A DNA stretch of 26,764 nt from Alphaproteobacteria bacterium (GTDB taxonomy: Bacteria > Pseudomonadota > Alphaproteobacteria > Rickettsiales > UBA1997): the NCBI GenBank assembly GCA_016869775.1, contig VGDJ01000001.1:1-26764 (forward strand), written 5' to 3'. The notes under the pieces were generated by a model that searched no databases, was not told the origin of the DNA, and was given only the letters and a program-made list of their open reading frames with translations. Each line of letters begins with the position of its first letter. Positions within the stretch are counted from its first letter, which is position 1. Both the position numbers and the translations under genes were made by a program. Shown piece after piece: positions 308 to 11,898 of this stretch.

Positions 308-2896
308 TTAGCTAAAAAAATATTTGATTTCACTTTTCAAATCGTAATAAATTTTTTTCATCTCTTCAAACCAATTATTACTCAAATCGCCTTCTTTAAT
401 TTTAGTTTCAATCATTTTACAAAAATAATATAATCTATCAGCGCCAATATTAACTGCCGAACCTTTTACAGAGTGAATGTATGATAGAAGTATTTTTTTA
501 TCGTTAATTTCTATTGCTGAATGAATTTTATCCATAAAATCGTCTATATCTCTAATAAACATTTGCAAAATAGCGCTCTGCTTTTCGCGATCAAAGTGAT
601 TTCCTAAAATTAATTGATTAAGATTAACAATCTCACTTGTTTCACTTCTTACTACTTTAGTGTAGTCTACCTTATTTATTTTGACGGGTTTTTTAATCAA
701 ATAGATGCTAATTATTTTAATAAGTAATTCTGGATTTGAACCTTTGATAAAATAATCAGTTAGACGGCAATTAAAATAATTACGAATATCATTTAAAGAA
801 CCATTTCCGGTTAGAGCAATAATTGGAATTTCATCATGATAACCAATTTTGTAAGAAGCTTCAATTTCTCTAACTTTAAGACTACATTCATCTCCACCAA
901 CGTAAGGCATACTTATATCGGTTAATATAATGTCAAAATAAGAATTACCTTCATTATCAAGACTTTGTTTGTAAATATTAATCATCTCGATACCGTCGCT
1001 TGCTTCAACAACAAATGCACCACACAATTCTAGATGCCTCTTAATTAAAACTCGGTTAATTGGCTGATCATCTGCCACAAGAATTTTTTTATTAATGAGT
1101 ATTTTACTATATTCATCTTTATCGCCGACATATTTTATATCATCATCGAAATCAACAAACCACTTGGTTATGCTTCGATAAAATATTCTTTCAAGAGATG
1201 ATTTACTTAAATAACCGCTAAAATTATTCAAAGCATTCTCAGTCAAAATTAATTTGTTAAATGTATCTTTATCAAGGGAAGTTAATGCAATAATTGGAAC
1301 CTCTTGATTAAATTCACGAATTTTTTTACTGGCTTGGATACCATCAATTTCAGGCATTTGAATATCCATTAAAACTAAATCGTAACCATTGTTATTGATA
1401 AATTTATCAATCGCTTCTTGACCTCCCCTAGCAACATCGCACTTAATTTTTGATAAATTCTTGTTAATTCTTGCCTGACCGGTAAGTAGATTTATAAGTT
1501 GATCATCAACCAAAAGAATTTTTTTCTCACCGCGCTCAATTTGAACTCTTGCAATATCTTCTTGCGCTAAATGAGGAAATAGTAATGAAAATTTTGTCCA
1601 TTTACCAAATTCAGATTCACAAATAATATCTCCACCAAACATCAACATATTTCGTTTACAAAATGCTAATCCTAGACCAGTTCCATCAATTTTACCTGAG
1701 GTATAAAAATCATCAAATAATCGAGAAATAGAATTTGCAGGAATTCCTGGGCCATTATCTAGGATATAAACTGAGTTATAATCAACTCCATCAAAAAGCC
1801 TTTTTTCGATACCTATGTTGATGATAAAATCATCTGATTTATTGTAATAAAGAGCATTTTTTAATAAATTAAAAATGATGTAATTAAACCTTTCAGGCAC
1901 AATTTTTAAAAATATACTGCTATCATTACTGTAGTGATATTTAATTTTTTTCTTCTCATCTTCATTTTTATAAACATATTTTTCTAAAATCTCTGGCAAA
2001 ATATTATCTGGATTTAAATATTTTATTTCATGCGGATATATTTGTTTTTCACTTAAATCATTAAGAATAATATTAATTATGTTATTGGCGTTATTAATTG
2101 ATTCACTGATTTTCTGAGTCAGATTTTGGATGTTTGCTGTACCCAATAGGTTTTGATTTATCGAACCAGCGCATGGCTCTATTTGGTTATTTTTTTGTAT
2201 TTTTGTAGCCGTGTCTTTTATTTCCAATCCAATTAGATTTATAGCATTAAGGGGGTTTTTAAGCTCATGAGCAATTGAGCCAGCAAGAGATTTAAATATT
2301 TTTGCTCTTTCTTGCGATGCTAGACCTTTTGCATTACTATAACTAAAAATAAGTCCTGCCATTATCGCAAAAATAAAAGTAAAAACATATAGCAGAAAAT
2401 CCAATTGGGCATTGTAGGAAAATACTAAGGGATCAAAAATCGCTCCCCCGAATAAAAAGCTATGACAAAACAATGATAATAAAATTCCAACAAGCAAATC
2501 AAAAGTAAACATTAACCAATGTGGAACAAACATCATTAATAAAAATATCATGATTACCTCCCACAAAAACCAAGTTTTCACAAAAGAATTATTTAGGGCC
2601 GTTAAGGTGATTAAAAAAGGGAGATTATATATAAGCATGAAGTGCCAATAAAAGGAAAAAAATGGCTTTATTTTTTTTGGCCATTTATTTTTCGTGAGAA
2701 GAATTAAACAAATAATTCCACCCCAAACTTTCAAAGTTATGCTGTCCCAAGGCATTTTAAATAAATAGATGTGCAACACAGCAAACAATTGGTGTCCAAA
2801 CGATCCAATTACTGCTGCTGACCTTAAATTGAAGTCATTAATGGATGTACCTTTATTAAAAGCTTCCCTGATGTATTGCTTTAGATTAAATTTCAA
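308..2896 (-). CDS. Hybrid sensor histidine kinase, CqsS/LqsS-like membrane sensor + HisKA + HATPase + REC + REC + Hpt (receptor 1)
   Basis: About 190-aa hydrophobic N-terminus; H-box SIAHELKNPL; N-box NLLKNALYY; G-boxes DNGPGI and GTGLGLAFC; REC1 LLVDD..LMDIQMP; REC2 LVADD..LTDISMP; Hpt IHSVKGSAVNIGA. TTG start. The CqsS likeness rests on recalled motifs (YNLPF, W..E-IMIFL, KNALYY, CESEFGKWTKF). Confidence 0.9.
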   Translation of the reverse strand: MKFNLKQYIREAFNKGTSINDFNLRSAAVIGSFGHQLFAVLHIYLFKMPWDSITLKVWGGIICLILLTKNKWPKKIKPFFSFYWHFMLIYNLPFLITLTALNNSFVKTWFLWEVIMIFLLMMFVPHWLMFTFDLLVGILLSLFCHSFLFGGAIFDPLVFSYNAQLDFLLYVFTFIFAIMAGLIFSYSNAKGLASQERAKIFKSLAGSIAHELKNPLNAINLIGLEIKDTATKIQKNNQIEPCAGSINQNLLGTANIQNLTQKISESINNANNIINIILNDLSEKQIYPHEIKYLNPDNILPEILEKYVYKNEDEKKKIKYHYSNDSSIFLKIVPERFNYIIFNLLKNALYYNKSDDFIINIGIEKRLFDGVDYNSVYILDNGPGIPANSISRLFDDFYTSGKIDGTGLGLAFCKRNMLMFGGDIICESEFGKWTKFSLLFPHLAQEDIARVQIERGEKKILLVDDQLINLLTGQARINKNLSKIKCDVARGGQEAIDKFINNNGYDLVLMDIQMPEIDGIQASKKIREFNQEVPIIALTSLDKDTFNKLILTENALNNFSGYLSKSSLERIFYRSITKWFVDFDDDIKYVGDKDEYSKILINKKILVADDQPINRVLIKRHLELCGAFVVEASDGIEMINIYKQSLDNEGNSYFDIILTDISMPYVGGDECSLKVREIEASYKIGYHDEIPIIALTGNGSLNDIRNYFNCRLTDYFIKGSNPELLIKIISIYLIKKPVKINKVDYTKVVRSETSEIVNLNQLILGNHFDREKQSAILQMFIRDIDDFMDKIHSAIEINDKKILLSYIHSVKGSAVNIGADRLYYFCKMIETKIKEGDLSNNWFEEMKKIYYDLKSEIKYFFS

Positions 2897-2940
2897 ATTT
2901 AAATTTATTTATTTTTAGATAATTTTTTTATTAATACAGG

Positions 2941-2955
2941 TTGTGGTAACCGCAA
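2941..2955. promoter_or_regulatory. Quasi-palindrome in the divergent promoter region, possible regulator binding site
   Basis: TTGTGGTAACCGCAA has 6 of 7 positions paired around a central A. It is a GC-rich spot in a very AT-rich 370-bp intergenic region, 45-60 bp upstream of receptor 1. Confidence 0.25.
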
Positions 2956-3273
2956 ATTCGTTTTACTTTTTTTTTATTTATAGTCTAAACATCGTTGATA
3001 AAAATATTTTGAGTTCATGACAAATCAATATCAACTTAAATTAATTTTAAAAATGAATAACAAAAAAAATATATTAAATTTTACAACTAGTTTATCTATC
3101 ATTCATTTCAATAATTCATTTTATAACAAATTTTGTAGATTAAAATGATCATCTCATATTTTCTTATTAAGAAATATATTTTTTATGCTTACAAACTGAC
3201 AATCTTATTTATATTTTTAATTAAGTTTTGTAGTAAAATAAAAAAGTAATAACTGAATTATTATTTGTTAAAC

Positions 3274-4461
3274 ATGACAGAAAAAAATCTTGAATTAAAA
3301 CACTATATTTCACCGGATGAAATAAGAGATAGCTTACCCAAAAGTGGCGGTATGGGTTTTTTATTTCATTCTACAGATTGGAAAACCCTTTCATTCGCTT
3401 ATAATAATGTTAAAAATAGAAGTCCATCTTTTGAAATGGAGCTCTGGAACACCCCACCATTTATAGCTTCCAAAATGTATGTTGGTAATGAATTTATTGG
3501 CGTTAACATAGCAATGCCCGTTCCAATCGATATGTGGATAGGAAGTTCTGGTGGCCTCAGAGAGTTTCGTAAAAAACAATTTTTTCCTGCACTTGAACTT
3601 GCTGCAAAATGTAATTTAAAAATGGTAGCAATTGGCGCATCCACTCCATATGTATGCAATTACGGCAAGCTTCCGAGACCGTTAGCAAATCCATTTATAA
3701 CAACTGGCCACGCTGCAACTGTCGCAACATTAAAGAAATGGGCAGTTTATGCCGCAAAAAAAACAAATTGTGATTACAAAAAGATAAAGTTAGCAATATT
3801 TGGGGCCGCAGGGAGACTTGGAAAAGCAGTTAGCCAATTTATTGCATACTCTGAAGCTCCGCAAGAAATAATCCTAGTTGATCTATACAACAAGATGGCC
3901 TTACTAAAAACACAAGCTCAAGAGATGAAAAAAATAACCAAACGCAATGATTTAAAGATTTCCACTTATTGTTATGAGGCTTCAACTTTAATGCCAAGAT
4001 TTGATGGTGCAATTTTAGTAAGTAATAACAGCGTTCCTTATCTGACAAAAAATGACTTAAAAAAAGCAAAATTTTGGATTGATGATTCTCACCCCCGGGC
4101 TGCAAGCCTTGAGGCCGAACTCGGATCAAGAAATGATACTCTTTATATCGAATGTTATGCAAAAGGACCAGAAGGTTTTAATACAAACTTTCCTTTTAGA
4201 CTTCCGACAATTCAGGATTGTTATACTTGCTGTGCAGAAGGCTACGTTTCTTGGAAGGAAGGGATTAATGAAGATTTTGTTACTGGTATACCAGATGTTA
4301 AAAAGGTTGATCTCGTCGATAAATTGCTTGATAAGTATAATTTTCAACTTGGGCCATTCTCTGGAAAAAATGGCGATCTAATTCTTAAAATTCCAATACA
4401 GAAAAAAATTTTACAACCTACCCAAATCGAGGTCGAAGCTTTCGGCGATATGATCGACTAA
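3274..4461 (+). CDS. Acyl-ACP reductase-like NAD(P)-dependent oxidoreductase (COG5322 / cyanobacterial AAR-like)
   Basis: GFLFH N-terminal motif; VAIGAST; ITTGHAAT (AAR TTGNTHT); Rossmann IFGAAGRLGKAV (AAR VVGATGDIGSAV); DDSHPR; YTCCAEG matches the AAR catalytic-Cys motif FACFAE. ATG at 3274 preferred to the TTG at 3265. Confidence 0.7.
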   Translation: MTEKNLELKHYISPDEIRDSLPKSGGMGFLFHSTDWKTLSFAYNNVKNRSPSFEMELWNTPPFIASKMYVGNEFIGVNIAMPVPIDMWIGSSGGLREFRKKQFFPALELAAKCNLKMVAIGASTPYVCNYGKLPRPLANPFITTGHAATVATLKKWAVYAAKKTNCDYKKIKLAIFGAAGRLGKAVSQFIAYSEAPQEIILVDLYNKMALLKTQAQEMKKITKRNDLKISTYCYEASTLMPRFDGAILVSNNSVPYLTKNDLKKAKFWIDDSHPRAASLEAELGSRNDTLYIECYAKGPEGFNTNFPFRLPTIQDCYTCCAEGYVSWKEGINEDFVTGIPDVKKVDLVDKLLDKYNFQLGPFSGKNGDLILKIPIQKKILQPTQIEVEAFGDMID

Positions 4462-5463
4462 CTTTTCATTTACTTTTCCACTTACTGCTTTAAGTGCTTC
4501 TTCTCTGGTCATAAAACCCTCTCTAACATCTCTAGCAAGTGGAATAATATAAGGATGAAGATTGTATTTCTTCTGATGAATTGCAATACCAAGAGAATTT
4601 AGCTGACAATTAGTTGAACAAGAATCTGTGCTTTTTGTTCTTCGCCAATCTAGCTCTCTTTCAATCGTTTCATAAACTTCATGCTCATTGTACTTGTTAT
4701 ATTCAAAAAAAGGAACGAGATTCATTCTAGCAATTTTTAATTTTTTCCACAAAGAAATATCCAGAGCATTTATTGCATCTTTTTTTCCGAGAGTTTTTAA
4801 AAGATTTATCATTGGCGCAATCATATGTTTGTCAACATCCACTAAACCATTGAATTTTGATTTAAGATCATATTTCTTTTGCCTTAATTGACCTGGTGTG
4901 GTCCCAACCACAACATTTGGAATATTTTTTTCGGAGGCTAATTTAAAGGAATGTAAAGCAATTTGAGTAAAACACGGCCAACATGCGTGACCGATCATAA
5001 ACGCTAATTCTTTTGATCTTTTATGAATTCCAGAGTTTTGAAAACTTGCATTAAAAATTGTTTTATTGAGATTCCACGAAGGTTTGTAAACAATGTGATC
5101 AACATTAATTTTTTTCAAAACCCTATCAATATTTGCATAGGTTTCAGGTGGTATAAAGTGGTTATCAAAGGTGAAGGCCAGAACTCTTAATTTATAATGG
5201 TTGGCTAGCTTGTATAGCATATAAGTACTGTCTTTGCCACCGCTATATAGAACCATACAATCATAAGGATGCTTGCTACCAACTTTTAGTGTTGAGATCA
5301 TTTTCTTTTCAAGAGCTTGATAGTCTCGATCGAGATATTTTTTTTCTTCGTCATATTCATGACAAAAATTACAAACACCATTGCTATCGAATTTAATATT
5401 TGGAACCTGAGATGTTAAGATACACCTCGTACAAGTTTGAATTTTTTCTGATGAATTTACCAT
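4411..5463 (-). CDS. PP-loop adenine-nucleotide alpha-hydrolase (AANH), 'N-acetyl sugar amidotransferase' (WbuX-like) family
   Basis: N-terminal CTRC..CNFC metal site; PP-loop YDCMVLYSGGKDSTY; FTFDN; central CWPC; C-terminal DSCSTNCQLN and VREGFMTREEAL. Confidence 0.8.
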   Translation of the reverse strand: MVNSSEKIQTCTRCILTSQVPNIKFDSNGVCNFCHEYDEEKKYLDRDYQALEKKMISTLKVGSKHPYDCMVLYSGGKDSTYMLYKLANHYKLRVLAFTFDNHFIPPETYANIDRVLKKINVDHIVYKPSWNLNKTIFNASFQNSGIHKRSKELAFMIGHACWPCFTQIALHSFKLASEKNIPNVVVGTTPGQLRQKKYDLKSKFNGLVDVDKHMIAPMINLLKTLGKKDAINALDISLWKKLKIARMNLVPFFEYNKYNEHEVYETIERELDWRRTKSTDSCSTNCQLNSLGIAIHQKKYNLHPYIIPLARDVREGFMTREEALKAVSGKVNEKLVDHIAESFDLDLGRL

Positions 5464-5646
5464 AAATTAATTGGGAATTGATAAGTTTTATTAAAATTTG
5501 AACACCGTTAAAATAATGTATTTTAAAATGAGTTATAGAATAATATTTTTTTTAATATGTATTATTAGTTGTTGTTTATTTTTGGAGCAATTTATAACAA
5601 ATTTATTAATATAAAATTTGCTTCACAAGATCTTAAAAATCCTTTT

Positions 5647-5672
5647 AAAAAAATTAATCAAAAAAATTAATC
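5647..5672. repeat. 13-bp tandem duplication
   Basis: AAAAAAATTAATC twice, head to tail. Confidence 0.7.
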
Positions 5673-5736
5673 AAATGCTAATGAAAAAAATAAATAGTAA
5701 AATTTTTAAAAACCCCCGCGTTTTATTTCCTTTTTT

Positions 5737-5922
5737 ATGGCGCTCATAATGGCTTTCATTATGTCTGGAGTCTTGACTTTTATCAATGTGGGCATGATCG
5801 AAGGCTTCTTATTTAGATGGCTTAAATCATTTTTTTATGGATTGCTGATTGCTTTTCCAACCGCTTTTTTTGTTGCCCCCTTGGTGAATAAAATTGTTCA
5901 AAAAATTATCTCCAAAACTTAA
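5737..5922 (+). CDS. DUF2798-family small membrane protein; true start may be ATG 5681 in another frame
   Basis: MALIMAFIMSGVLTFINVG..FLFRWLKSF..AFPTAFFVAPLV resembles DUF2798. ATG 5681 reads MKKINSKIFKNPRVLFPF and would join this ORF if the T6 run at 5731-5736 had one more T. Confidence 0.65.
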   Translation: MALIMAFIMSGVLTFINVGMIEGFLFRWLKSFFYGLLIAFPTAFFVAPLVNKIVQKIISKT

Positions 5923-5925
5923 CTA

Positions 5926-5949
5926 AATCTAAAATTTAATCTAAAATTT
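5926..5949. repeat. 12-bp tandem duplication
   Basis: AATCTAAAATTT twice, between the DUF2798 gene and regB. Confidence 0.7.
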
Positions 5950-5978
5950 TCATAATTTTTTAAAAAATTTAATAACCA

Positions 5979-7232
5979 ATGATGATTAGCTTTTCAACAA
6001 TAAGTGTTAATAAAGGAAATCTAAAACTCCTCATAATTCTTCGAATAATTGCCATTTTTTCACAAATTGCGACTATTGGATTTGTATATTTTTTATTAAA
6101 AATAACTTTACCAATATTACCAATGATTTTAGCGATTGGATTTTTAGCGATCGTTAATATCCGCGCCTATTTTAAATTCAAAAAAAATATCATTACTGAT
6201 AAAGGTTTATTTTTGGAATTATTGTTTGATGTATGTATTTTTGCCCTACAAATTTATTTGAGCGGAGGAGCATCAAATCCATTTATCTCACTTTTTTTAA
6301 TTCAGATAATAATAGCGATAATCTTGCTAAGACCTTTATTTTATTGGCTTATTGCAATAATATCTGTAATTTTTTATGTTCTTTTGGGTAAATTTTATTA
6401 TCGTAATATTGACCTTCAAACACATAACCATCATCAAGGTGATTTTAGTTTACACCTTCAGGGCATGCTTTTTAGCTATCTAATCTTGGCAATTTTGTTA
6501 ATAATTTTTATTGGAAAAATTATTCGCAATATTCAACTTGAACAACAAAAAATTTATACCCTCCAACAACAATCACTTCAAGAAAAACATCTTGTAGAAA
6601 TGGGTTTATTTGCTACAAATTCAGCCCATAATTTAAGCACTCCCTTATCCACAATATTGTTGTCAATTAATCATTTAAAAGAGAATTTAAATTATAAAAA
6701 ATTTGACGATGATTTTAAATTAATCGAAAAACAAATCTTTCGGTGTAAAAATATTATCTCGGATATTTTGAATTATTCAGGCGCCCAGAGACTTGAAAAC
6801 TCAGAATCCTTAAATCTTCGTCAATCTTCAATTCAATTAATAGAAAATTGGCATAGTCATTCGCTTGTTAAAAATTTGCACATTAATTATTTTGGCGATT
6901 CTAAAATCAATTTTTCATTCGATAAAACCTTAGCAAATGCAATTTATAATATACTTGATAACTCTTTTGAGTCATACATAAATGAGATTATAATAACAAT
7001 TTACAACGATCAAAAAAATATAATTTTTAGTATTATTGATGATGGTAAGGGTTTTGAAAAACGAATTTTAAAAAAACTTGGGCAAAAAAATATTTCTACT
7101 AAAAATAGTAATGGTTTGGGAATTTATTTAACCATCAATACTTTAGAAAAAATTGGCGGAAATTTTATTGCTCTAAACCTTAAAGATAAAGGCTCTATGG
7201 CTAAAATAATTATTCCAATTAACCATGATTGA
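5979..7232 (+). CDS. regB: RegB/PrrB/RoxS-family redox-sensing histidine kinase
   Basis: Multi-TM N-terminus with quinone-binding SGGASNPF motif; FSLHLQGM; H-box variant AHNLSTPL; redox Cys QIFRCK; DDGKGF and NGLGIYL ATPase boxes. Confidence 0.85.
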   Translation: MMISFSTISVNKGNLKLLIILRIIAIFSQIATIGFVYFLLKITLPILPMILAIGFLAIVNIRAYFKFKKNIITDKGLFLELLFDVCIFALQIYLSGGASNPFISLFLIQIIIAIILLRPLFYWLIAIISVIFYVLLGKFYYRNIDLQTHNHHQGDFSLHLQGMLFSYLILAILLIIFIGKIIRNIQLEQQKIYTLQQQSLQEKHLVEMGLFATNSAHNLSTPLSTILLSINHLKENLNYKKFDDDFKLIEKQIFRCKNIISDILNYSGAQRLENSESLNLRQSSIQLIENWHSHSLVKNLHINYFGDSKINFSFDKTLANAIYNILDNSFESYINEIIITIYNDQKNIIFSIIDDGKGFEKRILKKLGQKNISTKNSNGLGIYLTINTLEKIGGNFIALNLKDKGSMAKIIIPINHD

Positions 7233-7789: not shown

Positions 7790-10459
7790 TTAATTTGTTG
7801 ATGATTTTAAATGATTTTTTAACTCTTCGATCAATTCAAGATATAGAGATTCTATTTGAAAAACAGCTTGATTGACCATTTTTTCATCGCTTTTAAGAGC
7901 TAAATCTAATTTTTTAATAAAATTTGCAAATTTTTCAGCGCCGATATTTGCAAGAATTCCTTTAAGAGAGTGAACATATGGGTTGAGCATTTTAATGTTA
8001 CCCTCTTCAGTATGCTTTTTTATTTTGCCAATTATTTCTTGACTGTCTTCAATAAATAACTCGATTATTTTATTTTTTTCTTCAAATGAAAAATTGTTTA
8101 TAAAATTGGCATTAAAAACCAATTCTTCATTGGAGTTTTGTTTTTCAGAATGTTGATCTAAATCTATCGATTCTGCATATATACTTGGGTCGATTTTAAT
8201 GAAGAAATTCGCTATAATTTTTATTAGATTATCGAAATTATTGCCTTTAATAAAATAATCATCGATTCCAGCTCTAAAAAAACTTACAATCATTTCATTA
8301 GATCCGTCCCCACTAAGAGCAATAATTGGGATTCTATTTCCATAGTAAATTTTATTTTTTTCTTCAATTTTCCTAATTTCCAATGAAGCATCCTCTCCCG
8401 ATACATAATTCATATTTATATCGGTAATTATTGCATCAAAACTCGAACAACCTTTTTCATCGATGCTTTTATTATAAAGATTAATAACCTCACTACCGTT
8501 TCTTGCTTCGACCACAATAATTCCGTATTTTTCGAGAATTTTTCTAGTTATTACCCGATTTAAATCTTGATCATCAGCTAAAATAATTTTTTTACCCACC
8601 AAAATTGAAATGATTTTATTTTTATCAATTCCAAGATATAAAAAATTATCACTATAGTCAGTTATATTTTTAGCAATTGTTCTGATCAAATGATTGTTGG
8701 GCGCCACTTTGCTGATATAATCAACAAAATTATTTCTCGCTTCTCTTTTATCAAGTTCGCTGATAAAAGTTTCGTAAGATAGTGATGTGGCGGCAATAAT
8801 TGGAACGTTATTTCTAATTCTTTTAATTCTATGACTAGCCTCAATGCCATCAATATGAGGCATTTGAATGTCCATCAGAACTAGGTTATATCGATAAGAT
8901 TCAGACATTAAAATTGCTTCCTTGCCACTATTAGCGATATCACATGATATTCTGGGCATTAATTTCTCAATTTTAGTTTTTAAAGCGATTAGGTTTATTT
9001 TATGATCATCAACTAGTAATATTTTTTTTAATTTACTAATCTCTTGGGCCCTTTGAAGCTCTTCATTGGTCGGATAACTGAATAACAATGAAAATTTTGT
9101 CCAGCCCTGCCCGCCATAACCATATTCAGATTCACACATGATATCACCGCCAAGGATTTTCATGTTCTTTTTACAAAAAGCTAGACCAAGTCCAGTTCCA
9201 CCTTTTTTACTAAAAGTTGTAAAATCTTTAAATAATTTAGTAATTTTTGAAGCCTGAATTCCAGGTCCGTTATCGGTAAAACTGATAATATTATATACCC
9301 TATTATTAATAAATTGCTGATCAAAACTAATCTTGATAGTCATATTTGGAAATTGATGCACATAGTAAAGAGCATTTTTGATGATATTATTGAAGATAAA
9401 ATAAAATCTTTGTTTGGTTATTTTAAAAAACAGATTTTCTATTTTAGTATCTTTGGGGGCTTCAAATATTATTCTATTTGCATATGAGGATTGAGGATAA
9501 TGTCTTTGAATTAATTCAATTATTTCAGTTGTATTTGCATAATAATATTCAGTCTCATCGATATTTTTTTCTCGTAAATCACTTAATACCAGATCAATAA
9601 TATCATTGGCATCTTTGGATGATTTTGATATTGAGTCGACAAATTCAATTAATGAATTTCTTTCACTATCGGCCAAATTGGAGTTCTCAACAATTTTTTT
9701 GACCAAATCGTCGTTATAAAGATTTTTTTTAACTAATATAATCTCGTTTTCACTTAAGGTAGTTCTTTGAACCTGATTAATCAGGTTTTCGATTTGAACA
9801 ATAACCGCATTAATACTATTCAAAGGATTTCTAAGTTCGTGGGCAATTGAACCAGCTAATGATCGAAAAATAGTTGCTTTTCTTTTTTCAAAATCACCTT
9901 GTTTAGCTTTTTCTAAAAATAAAGTACCACAAATAAGTGCCAGTGGTAAAAGTGTAATAGCATACCGAAGTTCATGAATTGGAATCGAAATAGTGTTAAA
10001 GCTATTAATCAAAAAAAAATAATAACCAAGATAAACGCCCAGTGATAGAACCACAGAAATTACCACAAAATTTGTAATAAAAAGAATAACTAGAAAAATC
10101 ATAATAGTTTCAGCCACTATCCACATAATAGAAACATCATTCATTAGCATGATATAAGTATAAGTTATCGGCAAAATCCACATAACCCACAAATACCAAT
10201 AAATCATGAATAGCGGTTTAAATTTTTGGTAATTTCGTTCAGTTTTATATAAAAAAAGTATAACCAACAATGAGCACAAACTGGAGCTAAATCTAAAAAA
10301 AACGCTATCGAACTTTTCGTTCAGCAAATAGACATTTACCGCCCAATAAAATGGGTGACCAACAAAAAATATGATTGAGCCAAAGAAAATGTTGTATCTA
10401 CTCCTCTCATAATCTTCATTGAGAAATTGTACAACTCTTTGGAATAGCTGATTGAACAT
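7790..10459 (-). CDS. Hybrid sensor histidine kinase, CqsS/LqsS-like sensor + HisKA + HATPase + REC + REC + Hpt (receptor 2, paralogue of receptor 1)
   Basis: IMLMNDVSIMW closely matches recalled Vibrio CqsS MMLMNDWSTIW; VGHPFYW resembles CqsS LGFPAYY; SIAHELRNPL; IKNALYY; DNGPGI; GTGLGLAFC; LMDIQMP; ITDINM; Hpt VHSLKGILANIGA. Confidence 0.9.
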   Translation of the reverse strand: MFNQLFQRVVQFLNEDYERSRYNIFFGSIIFFVGHPFYWAVNVYLLNEKFDSVFFRFSSSLCSLLVILFLYKTERNYQKFKPLFMIYWYLWVMWILPITYTYIMLMNDVSIMWIVAETIMIFLVILFITNFVVISVVLSLGVYLGYYFFLINSFNTISIPIHELRYAITLLPLALICGTLFLEKAKQGDFEKRKATIFRSLAGSIAHELRNPLNSINAVIVQIENLINQVQRTTLSENEIILVKKNLYNDDLVKKIVENSNLADSERNSLIEFVDSISKSSKDANDIIDLVLSDLREKNIDETEYYYANTTEIIELIQRHYPQSSYANRIIFEAPKDTKIENLFFKITKQRFYFIFNNIIKNALYYVHQFPNMTIKISFDQQFINNRVYNIISFTDNGPGIQASKITKLFKDFTTFSKKGGTGLGLAFCKKNMKILGGDIMCESEYGYGGQGWTKFSLLFSYPTNEELQRAQEISKLKKILLVDDHKINLIALKTKIEKLMPRISCDIANSGKEAILMSESYRYNLVLMDIQMPHIDGIEASHRIKRIRNNVPIIAATSLSYETFISELDKREARNNFVDYISKVAPNNHLIRTIAKNITDYSDNFLYLGIDKNKIISILVGKKIILADDQDLNRVITRKILEKYGIIVVEARNGSEVINLYNKSIDEKGCSSFDAIITDINMNYVSGEDASLEIRKIEEKNKIYYGNRIPIIALSGDGSNEMIVSFFRAGIDDYFIKGNNFDNLIKIIANFFIKIDPSIYAESIDLDQHSEKQNSNEELVFNANFINNFSFEEKNKIIELFIEDSQEIIGKIKKHTEEGNIKMLNPYVHSLKGILANIGAEKFANFIKKLDLALKSDEKMVNQAVFQIESLYLELIEELKNHLKSSTN

Positions 10460-10638: not shown

Positions 10639-11898
10639 CTAAAACTGCTTTTTAATTGCTAATGAAATCACATCAACCGAAGTATGATATTGTCCACTTA
10701 AAGTACCTTCAATGTTGTTACTACCCATGCTCTTAATATCAATTCTGCCGGTTTTATAAAATTGATGAACATATGCCAAATCTAATTCTAAATCATTGTC
10801 AAATTTATGATTTAGACCAGCACTTAGCCAATATTTATTTGAAGCTGGCACTCTCGGCTCACGATTTCTATTGTTAATAGCTTCTTTTTCGTAAGCCAAA
10901 CCAGCTCTGAGTATATTTTTATTATTTAAGCTATAATTCGCACCGATCGAGTAAAGAATTGAATCGTTCCAATTGAAGTTAGATGAAGAGCTAAACAATG
11001 GATTGTCGTAGGCATTAAGGCTTAATTTTTCTAATTTTGACCATCTAGTCCAAATTGAATCGGCAACCAATTGAAAGTCTTTAGAAAAATTATGCGATAA
11101 GCCTATTGATAAAGACTCTGGGGTAGAAGTTTTAGACTTAAAGCGTGAGGAGGCGACATTTTGCAATTCTGTGCTGCCCTTAATATTATGAACAATCTTT
11201 GAACGATAACCCACGCCAATTTTTGTGTCTTGATTTATTTTGTATGTGGCACCTAAGTTAAAACCATAGCCCATATCACTTCCTGAAACTTCTCCGATTT
11301 GATCAGCATAAGTAGTTGGATCTTTTGAAAGAGTAGAAAGTTTAACTTCATAACGTTGCGCAACTAACCCAGCACCAACCGATAAATCATCGGTAATTTT
11401 GTAGGCCAATGATGGATTAAAATTTAGAGTTTTAATTGAACTGTTTAAAGCACGATATTTACCGGTCCAATCGGCTCGATATGATGTTTTTAAACCAAAA
11501 GGTGAAGTAAGGGCAAAATTTAAAGACAACTTATTAGAGATTGGTGAAGAAATATAAAAAGCTGGAATTAAGTTTTCACTACCAATATTGCTTGGATCAC
11601 GACCATTTGTTGAACCAAAAGCATTTGAACCAGTCATGTTATCAGGGTCAATTTTTAGATTTAAATAGCTCATCGAGAGTATAGCTTCATTTTTCTTGGC
11701 TCCAGCTGTTATGGATGGATTAAAAAAACTATCACTAACATCGTGAGAACCAGTGGTTGAGCCTGCATAACTATTGCCAAGACCTGAAGTTGAATAAATA
11801 TAAGTAGAATATCCTCCAGCAAAAGCGCTAGAATAAATTGATGATGAGAGCGCAATCGAAAGCACGGCTTTTTTAAAGTGTTTTGTATAATTTTTCAT
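10639..11898 (-). CDS. fadL: OmpP1/FadL-family outer-membrane channel for hydrophobic molecules
   Basis: Signal peptide ending SSAFA; hatch motif STSGLGNSYAG; FFNPS (NPA variant); FGLKTSY; LNFNPSLAYKI; REPRVP; C-terminal Phe. Confidence 0.88.
   Translation of the reverse strand: MKNYTKHFKKAVLSIALSSSIYSSAFAGGYSTYIYSTSGLGNSYAGSTTGSHDVSDSFFNPSITAGAKKNEAILSMSYLNLKIDPDNMTGSNAFGSTNGRDPSNIGSENLIPAFYISSPISNKLSLNFALTSPFGLKTSYRADWTGKYRALNSSIKTLNFNPSLAYKITDDLSVGAGLVAQRYEVKLSTLSKDPTTYADQIGEVSGSDMGYGFNLGATYKINQDTKIGVGYRSKIVHNIKGSTELQNVASSRFKSKTSTPESLSIGLSHNFSKDFQLVADSIWTRWSKLEKLSLNAYDNPLFSSSSNFNWNDSILYSIGANYSLNNKNILRAGLAYEKEAINNRNREPRVPASNKYWLSAGLNHKFDNDLELDLAYVHQFYKTGRIDIKSMGSNNIEGTLSGQYHTSVDVISLAIKKQF

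Follow-up and report, generated by a model that had tools for sequence, protein, structure and literature searches.

Gene content of the locus

A stretch of 26,764 nucleotides (nt) at the start of contig VGDJ01000001.1 (GCA_016869775.1), from a Rickettsiales-like alphaproteobacterium of the UBA1997 lineage, was analyzed and is called the window here; its G+C content is ~30%. The gene under study encodes an enzyme of the superfamily that includes the cyanobacterial, fatty-aldehyde-forming acyl-acyl carrier protein (ACP) reductase (AAR) of Synechococcus elongatus and the putative terminal amidation domain (TAD), a domain of ~400 amino acids (aa) that ends non-ribosomal peptide synthetase (NRPS) modules with terminal-amide products (Rankin et al., bioRxiv 10.1101/2024.10.28.620694). 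Its open reading frame (ORF) on the plus strand runs from 3265 to 4461, and the first ATG, which is the likely start, lies at 3274. The genes that flank it encode two hybrid histidine kinases (HK1 and HK2), a PP-loop enzyme, RegB/RegA-like proteins and a FadL channel (Table 1). There is no gene for an aldehyde-deformylating oxygenase (ADO), a luciferase (luxAB) or an aminotransferase among them, as an earlier note made from this sequence had stated, and there is no NRPS gene in the window.

Table 1. Features of the enzyme locus (window positions; residue numbers of the enzyme unless stated otherwise)
Feature	Position	Strand	Remarks
Enzyme gene, discrete AAR/TAD-superfamily protein, 395 aa	3274..4461	+	Tail residues 378-395 non-conserved, low confidence
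TTGH motif, T143-H146	3700..3711	+	Invariant in 20-member alignment; corresponds to TAD Thr2042-Thr-Gly2044 and AAR TTGN
Dinucleotide-binding motif GAAGRLG, residues 177-183	3802..3822	+	GxxGxxG spacing as in AAR, not TAD GxGxxG
Asp203, end of Rossmann strand beta-2	3880..3882	+	Corresponds to TAD Asp2102; alignment 'lidl' vs 'LCDVY'
DDSHP loop, residues 270-274	4081..4095	+	Corresponds to TAD Asp2169-Asp-Ser-Gly-cisPro2173; TAD Gly is His here
DCYTCCAEG, residues 315-323	4216..4242	+	Contains C319, predicted to accept the acyl group
Hybrid sensor kinase HK1, 862 aa	308..2896	-	Divergent from enzyme gene; CqsS/LqsS-family membrane sensor, H-box His210, HATPase, two REC, Hpt
Divergent AT-rich intergenic region, 377 nt, HK1 to enzyme	2897..3273	.	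Presumably both promoters
PP-loop ATP pyrophosphatase, WbuX/PseA amidotransferase type, 350 aa	4411..5463	-	N-terminal CxxC...CxxC zinc ribbon, SGGKDS
HK2, 889 aa, HK1 paralogue	7790..10459	-	Same sensor type and domain order as HK1
FadL/TodX-family outer-membrane channel for hydrophobic molecules	10639..11898	-	Beside HK2; beside HK1 in several relatives

The enzyme has the fold of TAD and AAR

The AlphaFold2 (AF2) model of the enzyme has a pLDDT of 89.2 and a pTM of 0.88, and only the tail is disordered. In Foldseek, the TAD of the carmabin synthetase ranked first (E 7.5e-19, TM 0.70) and AAR second (E 3.9e-14, TM 0.68), followed by shikimate, Phe and Glu dehydrogenases at E ~1e-6 and TM ~0.35. 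VIA-align gave Z 34.0 over 348 residues with TAD (model 8-379 vs TAD 1913-2299) and Z 33.9 over 315 residues with AAR 6jzu (model 26-371, root-mean-square deviation (rmsd) 2.6 Å), and the next fold followed at Z 13.7. The model has both domains of a TAD, i.e., a macrodomain-like one at the N-terminus and a Rossmann one at the C-terminus. The first strand of a TAD (at residue 8) and its first helix (14-20) are present too; together they form an N-terminal extension (model residues 8-25) that TAD shares and that has no counterpart in AAR.

The earlier note had proposed a Foldseek comparison with AAR and had held that its proposal of an AAR-like enzyme would fall if a fold of the shikimate dehydrogenase or glutamyl-tRNA reductase type scored better and acyl-thioester activity were lacking. 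In the structure comparison the opposite was observed, with AAR in second place behind TAD and these folds at Z 12-13 against 34. The identities of amino-acid dehydrogenase, shikimate dehydrogenase and glutamyl-tRNA reductase were rejected on the VIA-align scores. The first of them is the automatic annotation of the family, since homologues are named COG5322 'predicted amino acid dehydrogenase' by JGI and NCBI, or are unnamed, and none has a Pfam domain. There are weak structural matches to Phe, Leu and Glu dehydrogenases as well, but they reach only Z 12-14 at rmsd 5-6 Å, compared with the Z 34 of AAR and TAD, and the name stems from the COG label and not from any experiment, so that an amino-acid dehydrogenase is most improbable.

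Between the two solved relatives, the enzyme is, by sequence, clearly nearer to TAD. With the single sequence as query, phmmer matched TAD at E 1.4e-6 and AAR at E 1.8, and with the family profile the values were E 1.1e-14 and, for AAR 6jzu, E 1.5e-6, so that chance does not account for the likeness to AAR. The AAR model of NCBIfam, TIGR04058, scored 22 bits against a cut-off of 449.7, with a match confined to residues 142-214; on this score the enzyme is not an AAR orthologue or equivalog. The only Pfam match was a sub-threshold Ldh_1_N on the Rossmann part.

Conserved residues and predicted chemistry

An alignment of 20 family members contains 75 invariant columns. These include TTGH (143-146), FGAxG (176-180), G183, DD.HPR (270-275), E293-C294 and D315-C316-Y317-x-C319-..-E322-G323. 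The TTGH motif is in register with 'ITTGH' of TAD and 'FTTGN' of AAR. In the dinucleotide-binding motif, 'GATGDIG' of AAR aligns to GAAGRLG without gaps, whereas 'GL-GSVG' of TAD requires a gap of one residue. At the column of Asp203, Asp is found in at least 90% of the family. Its TAD partner is numbered by counting along the printed TAD sequence from G2081, which gives 2102, and Asp2102 is the residue that selects NAD(H) over NADP(H) and CoA in TAD (bioRxiv 10.1101/2024.10.28.620694). With an NAD-type Asp at this position, the enzyme is not expected to share the NADPH dependence of AAR. In the loop equivalent to DDSHP, Asp2170 of TAD stacks on the nicotinamide and AAR has a Gly (bioRxiv 10.1101/2024.10.28.620694).

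The putative catalytic Cys lies in YTCCAEG (residues 317-323, nt 4222-4242), which the earlier note had singled out together with the Rossmann motif as AAR-like. Both stand up to alignment: C319 is in register with the catalytic C294 of AAR (FAC294FAE vs YTC319CAEG), which lies at the beginning of a helix that faces the nicotinamide, and the family form is YTC319[CF]AEG (CYTCFAEG). In TAD, the invariant Cys2238 can be reached by the phosphopantetheine arm of the carrier protein, and Thr-Thr-Gly is also invariant (bioRxiv 10.1101/2024.10.28.620694). Since phmmer with the C-terminal 101 residues of the enzyme alone gave chance matches only, the equivalence of C319 and Cys2238 is based on the AAR register, on the helix position and on the residue offsets. 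C319 opens helix 318-328 in the AF2 model as Cys2238 opens helix alpha-12 of TAD, and the VIA-align offsets (1905 N-terminal, 1920 C-terminal) place C319 at ~2238. Two further invariant cysteines, C294 and C316, are specific to the family, and C316 forms a CxxC pair with C319. Taken together, the enzyme is a TAD-leaning mosaic, a discrete protein that is predicted to use NAD and a catalytic Cys in thioester chemistry.

Alternatively, the enzyme could be an acyl-ACP reductase of the true AAR type, whose fatty aldehyde goes to a non-adjacent partner in the synthesis of hydrocarbons, alcohols or waxes. The fold match (Z 33.9 over 315 residues), the AAR-like GxxGxxG spacing and the common CFAE motif would all agree with it. 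It is nevertheless improbable, in view of the TIGR04058 score (22 bits vs 449.7), of Asp203 at the site where NADPH enzymes accommodate the 2'-phosphate, and of the TAD-type DDSxP loop. In addition, the family is not cyanobacterial, and ADO (PF11266) was not found across the 1.285-Mb, 98%-complete source genome with a search that detected ADO in S. elongatus as a control. The AAR-type fold and the Cys of the aldehyde-making reductase suggested earlier are retained, but because the enzyme is closer to the NAD-dependent TAD than to the NADPH-dependent AAR, aldehyde formation becomes one of two plausible chemistries.

A small family with a patchy distribution

A search of 5.8 billion proteins returned 134 homologues at E<=1e-3. 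Identity to the enzyme is 74-85% in freshwater metagenome-assembled genomes labelled 'Rickettsiales' or alphaproteobacterial. Homologues of 55-60% identity are found in Paraburkholderia, Ralstonia, Cupriavidus and Oxalobacteraceae, and gammaproteobacteria (Porticoccaceae, Ca. Thiosymbion) contribute a few more. The close homologues are all of 340-420 aa, i.e., discrete proteins. The gene is evidently real and under selection, and the family would represent a new discrete branch of a known superfamily. This branch is small: when 1.84 billion cluster representatives were searched exhaustively with the profile, only 14 clusters, mostly fragments, reached E<=1e-30, and the scores of the subfamily fell sharply from 175 to ~120 bits. 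A search of the ESM Atlas returned generic COG5322 and Shikimate_DH-type clusters and nothing else.

The enzyme is also rare among related bacteria. It occurs in 5 of 60 relatives of the source genome and in 4 of the 22 genomes of the same genus, and it did not turn up in searches of 400 evenly sampled Pseudomonadota genomes, of 300 genomes from the family of genome G256 (see below) and, by tblastn, of plasmids. Accessory signalling modules often show such a patchy spread.

Distant relatives (~75-100 bits) are either discrete or fused to PlsC-type acyltransferase, START/polyketide-cyclase lipid-binding or PilZ domains. The PlsC- and START-type fusions would fit an acyl substrate for the enzyme. 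Fusions to PilZ, which binds cyclic di-GMP (c-di-GMP), were seen in other lineages for two distant enzyme relatives (P0270, P0224) and for a relative of the PP-loop protein (P0327). PilZ fusions in both families hint that COG5322-type and PP-loop enzymes may cooperate under c-di-GMP control elsewhere.

A sensor kinase gene accompanies the enzyme gene

The membrane sensor of HK1 comprises residues ~1-195 (nt 2312-2896), with several hydrophobic segments. The intergenic regions of 16 alphaproteobacterial (alpha) loci share no conserved motif that we could find, and scans for promoters and terminators remained at background level.

To count the pairing, loci were searched with hidden Markov models, and a sensor kinase was found within 1.5 kb of the enzyme gene in 51 of the 63 loci fetched. 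Of the other 12, seven are cut off before they reach the side where the kinase is expected, four hold distant relatives (<=41% identity, or fragments) in different surroundings, and one, L013, is a true exception. The loci represent alpha-, beta- and probably gammaproteobacteria. All seven genome-derived relatives have HK1, the enzyme gene and the PP-loop gene in this order, with HK1 divergent and the PP-loop gene convergent, and in the alpha loci the enzyme and kinase genes diverge at a distance of 116-509 nt (ORF coordinates).

The arrangement differs in the betaproteobacterial (beta) loci. In those of the Paraburkholderia type, whose metagenome copies of the enzyme show 57-60% identity and 62-65% G+C, the kinase gene follows the enzyme gene on the same strand at 0-35 nt, often with an overlap of 4 nt. 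This kinase is a homologue of HK1 and aligns from HK1 residue 10, so that the membrane sensor is included. The beta-type loci carry an extra conserved convergent gene encoding a REC-HisKA-HATPase protein. Hpt is fused in the alpha-lineage kinases and had no match in the one beta-type kinase scanned. Two loci of lower G+C (L028 and L060, with 410-aa ORFs) have a short LqsS-like kinase, whose non-hybrid architecture was confirmed with Pfam in L028 only. Directly upstream of the enzyme, three Paraburkholderia-type loci contain an ORF of one cluster (L046:2120-3496, L051:8185-9594, L044:904-2226); the one scanned, in L046, encodes an outer-membrane phospholipase A1 (PF02253).

The tree of the enzymes mirrors that of the sensors, with the same major groups and many shared sub-groups, so that the pair is inherited as a unit. 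Adjacency alone cannot tell a synthase from a target, and the enzyme could be a regulated target of a kinase that senses another lipid or membrane cue, i.e., a lipid-remodelling enzyme making aldehydes, alcohols or amides for the envelope. The PlsC-type fusions of distant relatives suggest bulk lipid metabolism, and the ORFs of the phospholipase A1 cluster upstream in three beta-type loci would also speak for a regulated target. We consider such a role unlikely: the characterized members of this sensor family sense the product of the adjacent gene (PMC5289986, PMC3285556), the translationally coupled enzyme-kinase operons of the beta loci and the mirrored trees match the cqsA-cqsS pattern, and no DNA-binding response regulator is encoded in the cluster through which the kinase could act on the enzyme promoter.

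The partner kinase belongs to the CqsS/LqsS receptor family

No Pfam or NCBIfam model covers the sensor domain of ~195 aa. A profile built from twelve enzyme-linked sensors (A2) matched in 15 of 400 other Pseudomonadota genomes (E 6e-43 to 1.6e-7), with kinases matched at E 6e-43 to 1e-19. In six of the nine neighbourhoods fetched from such genomes, a PF00155 gene (AONS-type, CqsA/LqsA-like) lies beside the sensor. One of them, a 681-aa kinase with a 393-aa pyridoxal phosphate (PLP) enzyme on a second replicon of a ~5-Mb genome, follows the Vibrio pattern, and several others combine the PLP enzyme with a REC protein (LqsR-like) and a kinase of ~430-455 aa, as in the lqs cluster of Legionella. 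One relative of HK1 has been named CqsS automatically by JGI. The sensor domain of HK1 thus belongs to the CqsS/LqsS family, so that the enzyme sits in the usual place of the synthase CqsA.

The source genome encodes a third sensor of this kind, a Vibrio-type CqsS-like kinase of 699 aa, directly beside a cqsA-like PLP gene that the assembly has split between the end of contig C138 and the end of C91 (the pair covers C138:323-3125 and C91:4407-5003; loci L094, L095 and L096). The genome therefore holds a canonical cqsA-cqsS pair besides the locus of the enzyme, HK1 and HK2, and because of this cqsA-like gene the statement that CqsA is missing is true of the locus and not of the genome. None of the enzyme-linked loci, among them more than 20 of the Paraburkholderia type, has a CqsA-like gene within 10 kb.

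The presence of cqsA and a Vibrio-type cqsS in the source genome (C138, C91) is what speaks for a further alternative, namely that the enzyme modifies or inactivates the CqsA-made signal, e.g., by redox conversion of a diketone, enaminone or hydroxyketone head, and that HK1 and HK2 sense the derivative. Moreover, as Wei et al. are said to have reported in 2011, the conversion of Ea-CAI-1 to CAI-1 in Vibrio needs an NAD(P)H-dependent step that has not been assigned. However, an invariant Cys in an AAR/TAD architecture speaks for thioester chemistry rather than for ketone reduction, and the >20 Paraburkholderia-type loci are without a CqsA-like gene within 10 kb, which makes a signal-modifying role rather improbable.

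A maximum-likelihood tree was built from 65 sensor domains. Those linked to the enzyme (alpha HK1, HK2, beta and low-GC clades) all fall on one side of a branch with an SH-aLRT of 89. The CqsA-linked sensors lie outside it, and the third sensor of the source genome groups with the Vibrio-type (support 96). Nine enzyme-linked sensors were compared column by column with eight from the CqsA side, in HK1 numbering. Position 35 is His in 9/9 of the former and Phe in 6/8 of the latter; position 113 is Glu in 8/9 (Gln in one) and Y, F, F, A, M, H, L or V on the CqsA side; and position 112 is W, A or T in the enzyme-linked sensors and Ser in 8/8 CqsA-linked ones. Trp109 and Asn103 are present in both groups. 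In terms of the W-x-x-S-F motif of the ligand region, the enzyme-linked sensors keep the Trp, replace the Ser by W, A or T and have Glu at the position of the Phe. The motif of Vibrio-like CqsS is W100-x-M-S103-F104, which we take to correspond to W104 and S107 of V. cholerae CqsS, both of them implicated in the recognition of the head group. The membrane-embedded His and Glu suggest that the head group bound by the enzyme-linked sensors may be a different one that is more polar or more basic. In CqsS, ligand preference is known to depend on single residues of the last transmembrane helix (PMC3285556).

A related arrangement was seen in the high-GC genome G256 (L092, G256:C22:32000-43000), where an 848-aa CqsS-family hybrid kinase (3946-6492, minus strand) is followed by a REC-HisKA-HATPase gene (2780-4057, minus strand) as in the Paraburkholderia-type module. 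Within 5 kb there is neither a TAD/AAR-like enzyme nor a CqsA-like gene, and an ORF of 150 aa without a Pfam match lies upstream.

The PP-loop gene accompanies the enzyme gene only in the alpha lineage

The PP-loop gene is convergent with the enzyme gene, and their 3' ends overlap by 51 nt (4411-4461). The overlap covers the enzyme tail 378-395, and no terminator-like hairpin was found between the two genes. The protein matches TIGR03573 (WbuX, N-acetyl-sugar amidotransferase) over its full length with 150.5 bits, below the cut-off of 203.2, and its nearest PDB entry is 8wex (E 2e-8). There are no sugar-nucleotide genes near it in the window.

Strict orthologues (E<1e-200) occur in exactly the 5 of 60 relatives that have the enzyme, and they adjoin it there. 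The gene is absent from all Paraburkholderia-type loci examined. Homologues with 45-60% identity exist in unrelated lineages, e.g., Omnitrophota; they are uncharacterized, and some are fused to PilZ. The earlier suggestion that the product of the enzyme passes to this neighbour is therefore supported in part, i.e., as a true partnership in the alpha lineage, where co-occurrence and adjacency are strict. As the gene is absent from the Paraburkholderia-type loci, the PP-loop enzyme cannot be the core partner, and since the beta-type module does without it, it is best regarded as accessory, with a part in tailoring or as a helper.

The reaction of WbuX and PseA turns acetamido into acetamidino groups, and that of the PP-loop enzyme QueC turns an amide into a nitrile; both proceed by adenylation of the amide oxygen. 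If a TAD-type enzyme makes a primary amide, this amide would be well suited as the substrate of such a protein. A gene for NAD synthetase, another PP-loop enzyme, adjoins a few TAD clusters (bioRxiv 10.1101/2024.10.28.620694).

Other genes of the window

The remaining genes of the window are housekeeping genes: obg, lpxI, genes for a CCA/poly(A) polymerase-type enzyme and a polyprenyl synthase, an eptA-like gene and yebC. An ORF of 243 aa (19577-20308, plus strand) has a sub-threshold match to dual-specificity phosphatases (PF00782, 32.1 bits vs a cut-off of 33.5); as a eukaryote-like domain in a Rickettsiales-like genome, it is a possible candidate effector. A hydrophobic ORF of 61 aa (5737-5922, plus strand) lies just upstream of the regB-like kinase gene, and an open-ended ORF (25888-26764, plus strand) reaches the end of the window.

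A proposed signal synthase

The fold, the motifs, the gene pairing, the membership of the sensor family and the distinct sensor branch are the observations on which our interpretation is built. The earlier note had left the product of the enzyme to a pathway without a name. As the nearly universal partner is a CqsS/LqsS-family sensor kinase, this pathway is most likely signal production rather than bulk lipid metabolism. We propose, with a probability of roughly one half, that the enzyme is a non-homologous replacement of CqsA, i.e., a synthase for a small-headed lipid signal that would be read by the adjacent CqsS-family kinase.

We infer the substrate, the product and the sensing of that product by the kinase as follows. 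By analogy with TAD and AAR, the cytoplasmic, NAD(H)-binding enzyme would transfer an acyl group from acyl-ACP or acyl-CoA to Cys319. The acyl group could then be released either by hydride transfer, giving a fatty aldehyde as in AAR, or by attack of nitrogen, giving a primary amide, which is the chemistry proposed for TAD. The product would consist of an alkyl chain with a small polar head, the type of ligand that CqsS/LqsS receptors bind in the membrane. The enzyme and the membrane histidine kinase would thus be the signal-making and the receptor halves of a two-gene module, in which the enzyme takes the place that the PLP enzyme CqsA/LqsA has in alpha-hydroxyketone systems. In the alpha lineage, the WbuX-type PP-loop enzyme probably modifies the head group, by adenylation of the amide oxygen, to an amidine or nitrile; FadL could provide the passage of the hydrophobic signal through the outer membrane, and HK2 may act as a second receptor.

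Several observations count against this proposal. In L013 (JACCDM011391357.1, 5000-17500), a close homologue with full flanks has no adjacent kinase and keeps the PP-loop gene; unrelated ORFs lie upstream and an ORF of 1692 aa downstream at this locus. Between alpha and beta loci, the enzyme is far better conserved (57%) than the sensor domain (26-29%). The support of the sensor branch is moderate (SH-aLRT 89 in a quick tree), and the loci were gathered through the enzyme, so that the sensor labels are biased and not independent of the sampling. The adjacency of the kinase would fit a regulated target gene as well. The genome has its canonical cqsA-cqsS pair, and HK1 and HK2 could sense the CqsA product, just as LqsS and LqsT both sense LAI-1. 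The cluster contains no carrier-protein or acyl-activating gene. Finally, the amide route would follow a proposal, since the amide formation by TAD could not be reconstituted (bioRxiv 10.1101/2024.10.28.620694).

In its most complete form, the signal-synthase proposal states that discrete TAD/AAR-type enzymes constitute a new, non-PLP class of autoinducer synthases making a fatty aldehyde- or amide-derived signal, with possible tailoring by the PP-loop enzyme and a receptor of the His/Glu branch of CqsS/LqsS, in a module that has been transferred among alpha-, beta- and gammaproteobacteria and can coexist with CqsA/CqsS in one cell. This we put forward tentatively, at odds slightly short of even. 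Our literature search found no paper connecting CqsS/LqsS receptors with AAR/TAD-type enzymes.

Alpha-hydroxyketone signals (CAI-1, LAI-1) control virulence and life-cycle switches in Vibrio and Legionella, and they have so far been defined by a CqsA-type synthase. If the proposal is true, a new type of signal synthase would exist, the CqsS/LqsS receptor family would read a second chemical class of lipid signals, and the TAD family would gain a member that is small, soluble and free-standing and that brings its own biological read-out. The pair is present in cultivable Paraburkholderia, Ralstonia and Cupriavidus and is thus accessible to genetics and mass spectrometry. Two parallel lipid-signal systems in a freshwater, Rickettsiales-like host with a small genome would suggest a density- or host-dependent regulation like that of Legionella.

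Comparison with known systems

Among solved structures, the best sequence match of the enzyme is the TAD of the carmabin NRPS CarI (PDB 9e4s/9e4u/9e4x/9e50/9e56), with which it has in common the TTG motif, the NAD-selecting Asp, the DDSxP loop, a Cys at the start of the equivalent helix and the N-terminal strand and helix. The identity is, however, ~19-20%, and the enzyme is a free-standing protein, whereas TAD follows an NRPS carrier domain within a fusion. It also differs in the spacing of the glycine motif (GxxGxxG vs GxGxxG), in the loop (DDSHP vs DDSGP), in the two additional invariant cysteines C294 and C316, and in its genes being found in a signalling context and not in a biosynthetic gene cluster. 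Discrete proteins 'dominated by Burkholderia' have been described as 'Cluster 4' of the TADs (bioRxiv 10.1101/2024.10.28.620694), and these may or may not be the enzyme family.

With AAR from S. elongatus (PDB 6jzq/6jzu/6jzy; TIGR04058), the enzyme shares the two-domain fold, the catalytic Cys motif in register, TTG and GxxGxxG. It differs in scoring below the TIGR04058 cut-off, in the NAD-type Asp that replaces the NADPH-compatible site, in having Asp instead of Gly in the nicotinamide loop, in the N-terminal extension, and in its proteobacterial host, in whose genome ADO was not found. Proteins of the PigE/KecF type, in which a COG5322 thioester-reductase domain is fused to a class III aminotransferase and for which a thioester-to-aldehyde role has been proposed (PMC6498172), belong to the same superfamily. 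Their similarity is far below that to TAD, since the family profile matches PigE 4ppm weakly, although over the full length (E 0.17, profile positions 35-379), and the enzyme has no aminotransferase domain or neighbour.

As regards the signalling systems CqsA/CqsS of Vibrio and LqsA/LqsR/LqsS of Legionella, the likeness lies in a partner kinase of the same sensor family and in an enzyme gene directly beside the receptor gene. The parallel with Legionella extends to the two paralogous receptors, HK1 and HK2 resembling LqsS and LqsT in this respect, and to the source, a Rickettsiales-like and likely host-associated bacterium. The enzyme itself is unrelated to the PLP-dependent CqsA/LqsA, with no PF00155 match and an AAR/TAD fold, so that the resemblance is one of genomic position only. 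The enzyme-linked sensors, in turn, form a separate branch that is marked by His35 and Glu113 and lacks the conserved Ser, and their kinases carry two REC domains, together with a fused Hpt in the alpha lineage and an additional REC-HisKA-HATPase gene in the beta-type loci.

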